Shown here piece after piece: positions 1,787-2,096 of a stretch of 5,392 nucleotides of DNA. The notes below the pieces were generated by a model. The model saw only the letters and a program-made list of their open reading frames with translations. It was not told the origin of the DNA and ran no database searches. Both the position numbers and the translations under genes were made by a program. Origin of the DNA: a virus (lineage: Duplodnaviria; Heunggongvirae; Uroviricota; Caudoviricetes); the IMG/VR virus record IMGVR_UViG_2724679140_000006; one strand, written 5' to 3'. Positions within the stretch are counted from its first letter, which is position 1; every line of letters starts with the position of its first letter.

Positions 1787-1861
1787 TGGAGCGGGTAGCG
1801 GGAATCGAACCCGCATCATCAGCTTGGAAGGCTGAGGTAATAGCCATTATACGATACCCGC
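1787..1861 (-). tRNA. tRNA-Gly (anticodon UCC), glyT-like
   Basis: Reverse complement is GCGGGTATCGTATAATGGCTATTACCTCAGCCTTCCAAGCTGATGATGCGGGTTCGATTCCCGCTACCCGCTCCA. Clean cloverleaf, anticodon loop CTTCCAA, encoded CCA. Near-identical to E. coli glyT as recalled, with a compensating acceptor-stem pair. Confidence 0.9.
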
Positions 1862-1864
1862 ATA

Positions 1865-1940
1865 TGGTGCCGACTACCGGAATCGAACTGGTGACCTACT
1901 GATTACAAGTCAGTTGTTCTACCTACTGAGCTAAGTCGGC
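1865..1940 (-). tRNA. tRNA-Thr (anticodon UGU)
   Basis: Reverse complement is GCCGACTTAGCTCAGTAGGTAGAACAACTGACTTGTAATCAGTAGGTCACCAGTTCGATTCCGGTAGTCGGCACCA. Perfect 7-bp acceptor stem, anticodon loop CTTGTAA, encoded CCA. One apparent C-A mismatch in the D-stem. Confidence 0.8.
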
Positions 1941-1942
1941 AC

Positions 1943-2019
1943 TGGACCGCCACCGAGGACTCGAACCTCGTACGCTCAACTTAGAAGGTTGATGCTCTTT
2001 CCAGGTGAGCTAGTGACGA
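1943..2019 (-). tRNA. tRNA-Arg (anticodon UCU)
   Basis: Reverse complement is TCGTCACTAGCTCACCTGGAAAGAGCATCAACCTTCTAAGTTGAGCGTACGAGGTTCGAGTCCTCGGTGGCGGTCCA. Anticodon loop CTTCTAA as in argU-type tRNAs, T-loop TTCGAGT, encoded CCA. Acceptor stem has two G-U wobbles including U1-G72. Confidence 0.75.
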
Positions 2020-2020
2020 C

Positions 2021-2096
2021 AGGTGGCCCTTGCTGGATTTGAACCAGCGACCTGGCGATTATGAGTCGCTCGCTCTCACCACTGAGCTAAAGGGCC
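2021..2096 (-). tRNA. tRNA with CAU anticodon, ileX/ileZ-like (probably tRNA-Ile2; tRNA-Met not excluded)
   Basis: Reverse complement is GGCCCTTTAGCTCAGTGGTGAGAGCGAGCGACTCATAATCGCCAGGTCGCTGGTTCAAATCCAGCAAGGGCCACC. Strong resemblance to E. coli ileX as recalled. Anticodon loop CTCATAA. Only CC of the 3' CCA is encoded; the next base is T. Confidence 0.75.

Follow-up and report, generated by a model that had tools for sequence, protein, structure and literature searches.

What use has a temperate phage for four transfer RNA (tRNA) genes, two of which are near-copies of genes that its bacterial host already owns? The question is raised by a stretch of 5,392 nucleotides from a virus of the Caudoviricetes (IMG/VR record IMGVR_UViG_2724679140_000006; hereafter 'the window', meaning the whole stretch that was analysed), in which an array reading Ile2(CAU)-Arg(UCU)-Thr(UGU)-Gly(UCC) occupies positions 2096 to 1787 of the minus strand. 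A first-pass annotation, made from the letters of the sequence alone, had proposed that these anticodons match codons rare in Escherichia coli, as would befit phage supplementation of translation, and had suggested a comparison of codon usage as a check. That comparison came out positive, with the codons in question ranking first to fourth and sixth among those that the prophage over-uses, and we conclude that the array probably serves a lambdoid temperate phage as a cassette for tRNA supplementation. As a discovery this carries little weight: tRNA genes downstream of the antiterminator gene Q are a textbook lambdoid feature, and the composition is already annotated in RefSeq genomes. Its value is rather that of a clean worked example, in which the codons that a phage over-uses most are those read by its own tRNAs, and in which half of the cassette can be traced to an operon of the host.

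The window is 100% identical to part of the genome of E. coli IGC_EcoliInv_1.1 (NZ_CP054665.1), an isolate from a 'G2 mouse' in Oeiras, where the surrounding 45 kb form a lambdoid prophage beside ttcA, the Rac attachment site, with complete head, tail and lysis modules. The cassette lies between a Q-like antiterminator gene and the lysis genes, with a holin gene just past the end of the window. The prophage is probably KingRac, since the strain name (that of the IGC institute), the mouse G2 and the ttcA site all agree, and on the strength of that match the phage is probably active: KingRac is a 46.8 kb prophage that is inducible, forms particles and has moved between strains in vivo, in a paper that makes no mention of tRNAs (PMC6731689). 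With a documented role in the evolution of gut E. coli, such a carrier would make the function of the cassette directly testable in an existing system.

Across the window ARAGORN calls four tRNA genes and none more, head to tail on the minus strand: tRNA-Ile2 (CAU, ileZ type) at 2022..2096, tRNA-Arg (UCU, on an argN-type body) at 1943..2019, tRNA-Thr (UGU, a copy of thrU) at 1865..1940 and tRNA-Gly (UCC, a copy of glyT) at 1787..1861. The annotation of the source genome by PGAP agrees, naming them Ile, Arg, Thr and Gly, and the Rfam tRNA model (RF00005, curated threshold 29 bits) recovers them at 72.5, 45.4, 65.0 and 65.6 bits respectively, with E-values from 5e-15 to 1.6e-07; their host comparators ileX, argU, thrU and glyT score 73.1, 72.1, 73.8 and 64.9 bits under the same model. 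The order and coordinates of the first-pass annotation are those that ARAGORN gives, and its spacers of 1-3 nt are read from the sequence as 2 nt between Ile and Arg (TG), 2 nt between Arg and Thr (GT) and 3 nt between Thr and Gly (TAT). That annotation had also asked whether any of the genes would be flagged as a pseudogene. Each can be drawn as a cloverleaf (by hand, checked against alignments with relatives) and all score above threshold, with no helix broken and no anticodon loop lost; the sole helix defect without a counterpart in the host or in Shiga toxin (Stx) phages is a C11·A24 mismatch in Thr. Minimum free energy (MFE) folding of single sequences gives no cloverleaf for the Ile, Arg and Thr genes (Arg z = -1.1), a result that we set aside as uninformative because host thrU and ileX likewise miss the cloverleaf by this measure. 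Plus-strand matches to the Rfam 'Plastid-ycf2 5'UTR' family (1789-2096) are artefacts, reaching 26-36 bits against a threshold of 65.7 and lying exactly opposite three of the tRNA genes; the model evidently responds to tRNAs in reverse complement.

A CAU anticodon may belong to a methionine tRNA or to the minor isoleucine tRNA, and the first gene reads as the latter. It stands closer to K-12 ileX (88% identity) than to metT (68%), and it carries C4-G69, C5-G68, C29-G41, U12-A23, A37, A38 and A73, the determinants by which TilS and IleRS recognise their substrate. Its anticodon loop is that of ileX, the stem differing at the 27-43 pair (A·C here, G·U in ileX), and its nucleotides 1-75 are identical to those of Stx-phage ileZ and of all the other related cassettes fetched. 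The mature body runs from 2096 to 2024, followed by C74 and C75 at 2023-2022, after which position 76 is T where A would be expected (...GGGCC-A-CC-T); as the first-pass annotation had noticed, CC is encoded and the terminal A is not. Such a CCT end occurs in 1 of the 134 ileZ copies surveyed. In E. coli such ends are routinely trimmed to -CC and given their A by the CCA-adding enzyme, and the change is probably harmless because that enzyme can restore A76.

With U1·G72, which had been remarked on at first pass, U4·G69, A20, a U73 discriminator and an encoded CCA, the second gene is not a copy of host argU, to which it is only 73% identical. Its body is that of the Stx-phage gene argN, including U73 and the TCCA end, with the anticodon UCU in place of the UCG of argN, so that in effect it appears to join the body of argN to the specificity of argO. 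ArgRS identity rests on A20, C35 and U36 or G36; the D loop ACCUGGAAA places an A at position 20, the anticodon is U34-C35-U36 and all 21 of 21 helix pairs are Watson-Crick or G·U, from which charging with arginine is predicted. The low Rfam score is a family trait (argN 43.0, the UUU allele of relatives 44.4 and the allele of E. coli NC101 52.1 bits, against 72.1 for argU). The family keeps its fold: among 35 distinct alleles of the Arg slot, 97% of cells are paired and six pairs are altered on both sides, a number of double changes reached by 2 of 500 shuffles, with none of these pairs surviving when partners are slid by one or two columns. In the acceptor stem the pattern used to collect the alleles admitted mostly transitions, so that the percentage paired is inflated; the double changes are not.

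Within this family the allele of the window is an outlier. It differs at 10 positions from the commonest allele, none of which breaks a helix and one of which repairs an A51·C63 mismatch; leaving the anticodon loop aside, it stands 7-9 changes from each other allele. It has private changes at positions 1, 4, 15 and 48; U1·G72 is seen in 2 and U4·G69 in 4 of the 35. It was found in 6 of 5426 complete E. coli genomes, all of them the source strain or the mouse isolates M6 to M19, and in none of 105 IMG/VR hits. The argN-type body itself is far more widespread, being present in 1803 of the 5426 genomes, where it is annotated as tRNA-Arg, as tRNA-Lys or not at all. Its anticodon varies from prophage to prophage: UCG in Stx argN, UCU in the window and in many IMG/VR contigs, and, as the commonest form in E. 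coli, UUU with C33 in place of the near-universal U33. Examples are found in loci L002 (5158-5234), L004 (3122-3198), L008 (2501-2576), L006 (2501-2577) and L132 (~1499-1578), and one allele has a loop of 8 nt.

The remaining two genes are copies of host genes. The Thr gene differs from chromosomal thrU at 1 of 76 nucleotides, the change G24A that creates the C11·A24 mismatch, and its second mismatch, A52·C62 in the T stem, is native to thrU; the Gly gene differs from glyT at 2 of 75 nucleotides, a single compensated pair (C6-G67 to U6-A67), and scores 65.6 bits against 64.9 for its parent. In both, the anticodon arm (ACUGA/CUUGUAA/UCAGU in Thr) is identical to that of the host gene, and both share the amino-acid identity elements of their host counterparts. 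In the host these genes stand in the operon thrU-tyrU-glyT-thrT, upstream of tufB. The phage Thr-Gly pair has lost tyrU and both spacers, so that 3 nt separate its two genes; phage arrays usually lack thrT as well, although one IMG/VR array (L231) keeps it after Gly. The view that Thr and Gly are phage-type tRNAs was therefore not borne out, and the cassette reads as a mosaic: two genes are of phage type (ileZ and the argN-type body with UCU), and two were captured from the host operon. It follows that half of the array adds gene dosage, not new decoding.

Does the prophage use the codons that these tRNAs read? All of its intact genes (10,332 codons) were set against a sample of 28 core genes of the host, running from argA to yqeG (11,460 codons), enrichment being calculated within each amino-acid family and ranked among 59 codons. 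AGA stands first, rising from 1.0 per 1000 in the host sample to 8.2 in the prophage (8.7-fold), followed by AGG (1.1 to 4.3; 3.9-fold), AUA (4.3 to 8.6; 2.6-fold) and ACA (6.0 to 13.5; 2.05-fold), with GGA sixth (8.0 to 13.5; 1.9-fold) behind CGG in fifth place. The genes that were expected to benefit need some revision. The first-pass annotation had named AT-rich late or moron genes: the early, nin and lysis/moron genes are indeed AT-rich (47-48% GC), over-use AUA and show the strongest codon bias, while the late structural genes for head and tail have 55.6% GC and over-use AGA, AGG, ACA and GGA. The late genes over-use CGG and CAG as well, and the prophage as a whole is split sharply in composition.

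Several observations weigh against supplementation as a full account of the cassette. The late structural genes do not over-use AUA (odds ratio 0.96). The correlation is partly to be expected of any foreign DNA richer in AT, because the rarest codons of the host have the most room to rise. Thr and Gly merely duplicate host genes, and the Thr copy, with its D-stem mismatch, may work poorly. Most relatives in E. coli carry UUU (Lys) with C33 in the second slot; AAA, at 25 per 1000 in the host sample, is not rare, so supplementation cannot explain the whole family of cassettes. Finally, PGAP leaves the second-slot gene uncalled in 11 of 40 evenly spaced rows, or about a quarter of carriers.

If the cassette is to supplement translation it must be transcribed, and a promoter-like element lies directly upstream of it (2097..2134, minus strand): a -35 TTGCAA (2134-2129), a 17 nt spacer, a -10 TATTAT (2111-2106) and then a GC-rich stretch, CCTGCGCTC (2105-2097), up to the 5' G (+1) of the Ile tRNA. 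A scan for sigma-70-like sites is by itself not significant (6 sites against 4.3 expected), and the promoter call rests for that reason on conservation across relatives. The 44 distinct upstream sequences collected include at least five classes that cannot otherwise be aligned with one another, every one of which retains TTG at -35, the 17 nt spacer, TATTAT (TATCAT in one sequence) and 9 nt to the start of the tRNA, a pattern that amounts to a phylogenetic footprint of a promoter. Between -10 and +1 most classes are also rich in GC (CCTGCGCC, TCTGCTCC), two being exceptions. 'Stringent-type', the label given at first pass, is a fair description of the promoter sequence in the window, with hexamers and GC-rich stretch present and hexamers and spacing conserved; the term is kept here as a description of sequence only.

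Upstream of this element, after the anti-repressor gene described below and 80 nt before the tRNA promoter, a hairpin followed by a run of T (AACCCGC-CATTGA-GCGGGTT-TTTTG; 2215..2240, minus strand) resembles an intrinsic terminator, folding at -13.1 kcal/mol (z = -3.1), as well as which only 1 of 200 shuffles folds. In another upstream class, of which L076 is the representative, a similar hairpin lies directly against the -35. Downstream of the array, a weak hairpin before a run of seven T at about 1760-1741 and a terminator scan hit at 1687-1666 both fold no better than shuffles. A second, PR'-like promoter (TTGACT-18-TATATT, 3171-3142) overlaps the end of the Q-like gene. Together these elements suggest two routes of expression, one constitutive from the cassette's own promoter and the other by read-through from PR' once Q acts.

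From these features we infer a course for the cassette from transcription to benefit. The four genes would form a single transcription unit driven by their own conserved sigma-70 promoter, possibly active in the lysogen, and after induction Q-modified transcription from PR' could pass the upstream terminator and enter the cassette. Because the spacers are just 2-3 nt long, cuts by RNase P at the 5' ends would suffice to separate the genes, the short trailers then being trimmed by 3' exonucleases; in the Ile copy trimming would go as far as -CC, and the host CCA-adding enzyme would supply the final A. Modification and charging would fall to enzymes of the host, TilS turning C34 of the CAU tRNA into lysidine. 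The outcome, for phage or host, would be extra decoding of AUA, AGA(/AGG), ACA(/ACG) and GGA(/GGG), codons that are rare in the host and most over-represented in the prophage.

How singular is the array? The first-pass annotation had taken the Ile-Arg-Arg arrangement of Stx phages as its reference, with Thr and Gly in place of the second Arg. The comparison, which draws on GenBank annotation and general knowledge of phage 933W, was made with the ileZ-argN-argO cassette of the 933W/Sakai type (here Stx2a_F349, AP012530.1). Both cassettes sit in the same slot between Q and the late genes, behind the same promoter-like sequence, with an Ile gene identical over nucleotides 1-75 and a second gene on the same body. 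The Stx order, Ile(CAU)-Arg(UCG)-Arg(UCU), is not that of the window: argO (UCU) is indeed gone, replaced by Thr(UGU)-Gly(UCC), but the Arg gene that remains is a homologue of argN (UCG in Stx phages) bearing the UCU anticodon of argO, and no toxin genes follow the array. A literature search on ileZ, argN and argO turned up nothing relevant.

Closer relatives are the cassettes of vB_EcoM-606R7, vB_EcoS-689R5 and PhiR47_1, in which the order is Ile-X-Thr-Gly. They share with the window the gene order, the spacers of 1-3 nt, the promoter and the junctions, and are 94-95% identical to it over the whole array; the window likewise has an ileZ-type gene, an argN-type body and copies of thrU and glyT behind TTGCAA-17-TATTAT. 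They differ in the second slot, which is mostly UUU with C33 (Lys-like), and in Thr and Gly genes that are identical to thrU and glyT. Among 120 IMG/VR hits to the 3' half of the argN-type body, 91 are Ile-Lys(UUU)-Thr-Gly. A minority of relatives have Arg(UCU) of another allele (G73 or A73): 61 of 106 IMG/VR hits to a UCU-specific pattern are Ile-Arg(UCU)-Thr-Gly contigs, and in at least 10 further E. coli genomes, with a different Arg allele, PGAP gives 'tRNA-Ile | tRNA-Arg | tRNA-Thr | tRNA-Gly'. Over at least 80% of its length the array has a match in 599 of the 5426 complete E. coli genomes. The UCU version was found in none of the GenBank phage records (INPHARED), where the array is covered by the UUU version only, and a contig scan gave six loci (E. 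coli, Shigella, Salmonella, Citrobacter, Edwardsiella and one metagenome-assembled genome), too few to speak of host range. The four-gene Ile-Arg-Thr-Gly composition is thus already known and common in prophages. More distantly, tRNA genes for Thr(UGU) or Asn(GUU) lie downstream of Q in SfI, Sf6, ST64T, PS3 and phage 21 (PMC3636060), in the same genomic slot as in the window and with different gene sets; SfI is biased towards ACA, at 17.3% against 7.1% in its host (PMC3636060).

The variety of the second slot invites a wider reading, which we regard as unlikely although it fares best among the alternatives: that the lambdoid Ile-X-Thr-Gly cassette is a hot spot where fixed tRNA bodies exchange their anticodons, a turnover driven as much by defences such as PARIS, PrrC and P2-OLD as by codon usage. 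Its basis is that the argN-type body occurs with UCG, UCU or UUU plus C33, and a thrU-derived body with UGU, UCU or UUU. If it held, the rare and divergent UCU allele of the window would be one state in an arms race and not a simple rare-codon helper. The pattern concerns the relatives more than the window, some of whose relatives' alleles match published features of nuclease resistance, and it may repay work. The thrU-derived body carries UCU in SerU-LTIIb (L007 2165-2240), where it is annotated as tRNA-Arg and has A24 and G31 besides; in two IMG/VR arrays it carries UUU, and one of these (L177 5304-5379) is called Lys by ARAGORN. This brings to mind a reported laboratory experiment in which a tRNA-Arg(UCU), point-mutated to UGU, could stand in for tRNA-Thr(UGU).

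A rival reading dispenses with codon matching altogether. Here the genes would be spares, replacing host tRNAs that are destroyed during lytic growth by P2-OLD, by AriB of PARIS, by PrrC/RloC or by colicin-type nucleases. A precedent is P2-OLD, which blocks lambda by destroying the host tRNA-Thr(UGU) encoded by thrU, a block that is relieved by tRNA-Thr(UGU) genes of phages, lambdoid phage 21 among them (PMC12445682). The specificities at issue are often seen downstream of Q in lambdoid phages, and the prophage encodes a homologue of Gam, the lambda protein whose co-expression brought about the toxicity of P2-OLD in that study (PMC12445682). Among relatives the features of resistance are there to be seen: the UUU form of the second slot, with C33, has G39-U40-U41 in place of the AriB site U39-C40-A41 (site: PMC12409363), and 6 of 174 thrU-type copies are without the CAG motif and two stem pairs, which are the reported features of OLD resistance. 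In these six (IMG/VR loci L012, L179 and L060) the 3' strand of the anticodon stem has changed from UCAGU to UCAUC or UCACC.

The allele of the window is another matter. Resistance to OLD requires two changes together, in the CNG motif and in the anticodon stem, which is shortened (PMC12445682), and while the tRNA-Thr of phage 21 has such an altered, shortened stem and is resistant to P2-OLD (PMC12445682), the window copy has the host arm, with both CNG motifs and the U36AAUC|A41 site kept and neither the OLD features nor the changes at U39 or A41 relevant to AriB (PMC12445682, PMC12409363). With an arm identical to that of thrU it is predicted to be sensitive to P2-OLD, and host tRNA-ThrU itself gave little or no protection (PMC12445682). 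The other genes point the same way: the Gly anticodon arm is that of glyT, the Ile loop is that of ileX (though the stem differs at 27-43), and the second slot reads AGA, not AAA. No E. coli defence is known to us that singles out tRNA-Arg(UCU), and the codon data already account for all four specificities. Attractive as it looks for the relatives, judged by their sequences, the idea of spare tRNAs is not supported for the window allele and strikes us as improbable there. As a separate observation, the anticodon stem of tRNA-Gly(UCC), UCAGC/GCUGA with A37, holds the paired CNG pseudo-palindrome CAG/CUG that defines P2-OLD substrates (window 1787-1861; host glyT L003 687-761); a mention of tRNA-Gly(UCC) was not found in the main text of the OLD paper (PMC12445682).

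Could the genes instead be passengers in decay, functional in an ancestor and now drifting in a resident prophage to which they contribute nothing measurable? The first-pass annotation had wondered whether the odd features of the array were phage-specific traits or signs of decay. They prove to be rare point mutations of this lineage: the CCT end of Ile (1/134), A24 of Thr (3/174 phage thrU-type copies) and U1·G72 of Arg (2/35). Some of these private changes are mildly damaging, and the D-stem mismatch in Thr, present as announced, is the only oddity that looks truly so, costing 8.8 bits (65.0 against 73.8 for thrU) and weakening the predicted energy of the cloverleaf from -21.5 to -14.8 kcal/mol, a loss of about 6.7 kcal/mol that would destabilise the D arm. 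The distance of the Arg allele from all others fits drift, as do the several pseudogenes in the prophage, and decay plainly happens elsewhere, in the wrecked Ile and Thr genes of NC101. Yet in the window all four genes score far above the tRNA threshold, each change in the Arg slot preserves pairing, the change in Gly is compensated, the lost A76 is repairable, the promoter hexamers are intact and the phage is probably active, transmissible KingRac; decay is, in our judgement, a shade less probable still than spare tRNAs. In NC101 itself (L129 1380-1760), Ile and Thr are riddled with substitutions and go uncalled, and the Arg(UCU) between them is intact at 52 bits. The array is not a plain chromosomal operon, a possibility that the first-pass annotation had named as fatal to its proposal and that holds only to the extent that half of the genes derive from one: it lies inside a prophage, 3 Mb from thrU-glyT, in another genomic context and behind a different promoter.

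The tRNA cassette sits among regulatory elements. On the minus strand the window runs from hok/sok through NinB-like and HNH-like genes to the Q-like gene, the PR'-like promoter, isrK/c4-a1b1/C4, the anti-repressor gene, the terminator hairpin, the tRNA cassette and two copies of the small RNA STnc100 flanking a small open reading frame (ORF). The Q-like late antiterminator gene (3168..3722, minus strand) matches PHROG 753, anti-termination protein Q-like (E = 2.9e-79), and is DUF1133 according to PGAP. Directly after it comes a P1-like antisense immunity module (3171-2336, minus strand), comprising the PR'-like promoter (3171-3142), a c4-a1b1 target (3148-3096, an Rfam match), isrK (3135-3059, 74 bits), C4 antisense RNA (3030-2946, 75 bits) and the anti-repressor gene (2893-2336; PHROG 2379, E = 6e-90), all on the minus strand. 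We take this module to resemble the IsrK/AnrP/AntQ arrangement of Salmonella Gifsy-1.

At the upstream end of the window, again on the minus strand, lies a hok/sok type I toxin-antitoxin locus (5060-5385), with sok RNA at 5385-5210 (121 bits) and hokD at 5215-5060. Beyond the tRNA genes, the two STnc100 copies (minus strand, 929-1115 and 21-220; 86 and 105 bits) flank an ORF of 142 amino acids (390-818) that is 'TolA' according to PGAP and of unknown function according to PHROGs (phrog_5772). The same RNA family occurs downstream of stxB in the Stx2a phage locus (L006 792-1003, 158 bits), and STnc100 thus seems to be part of the leader of the lambdoid late operon.

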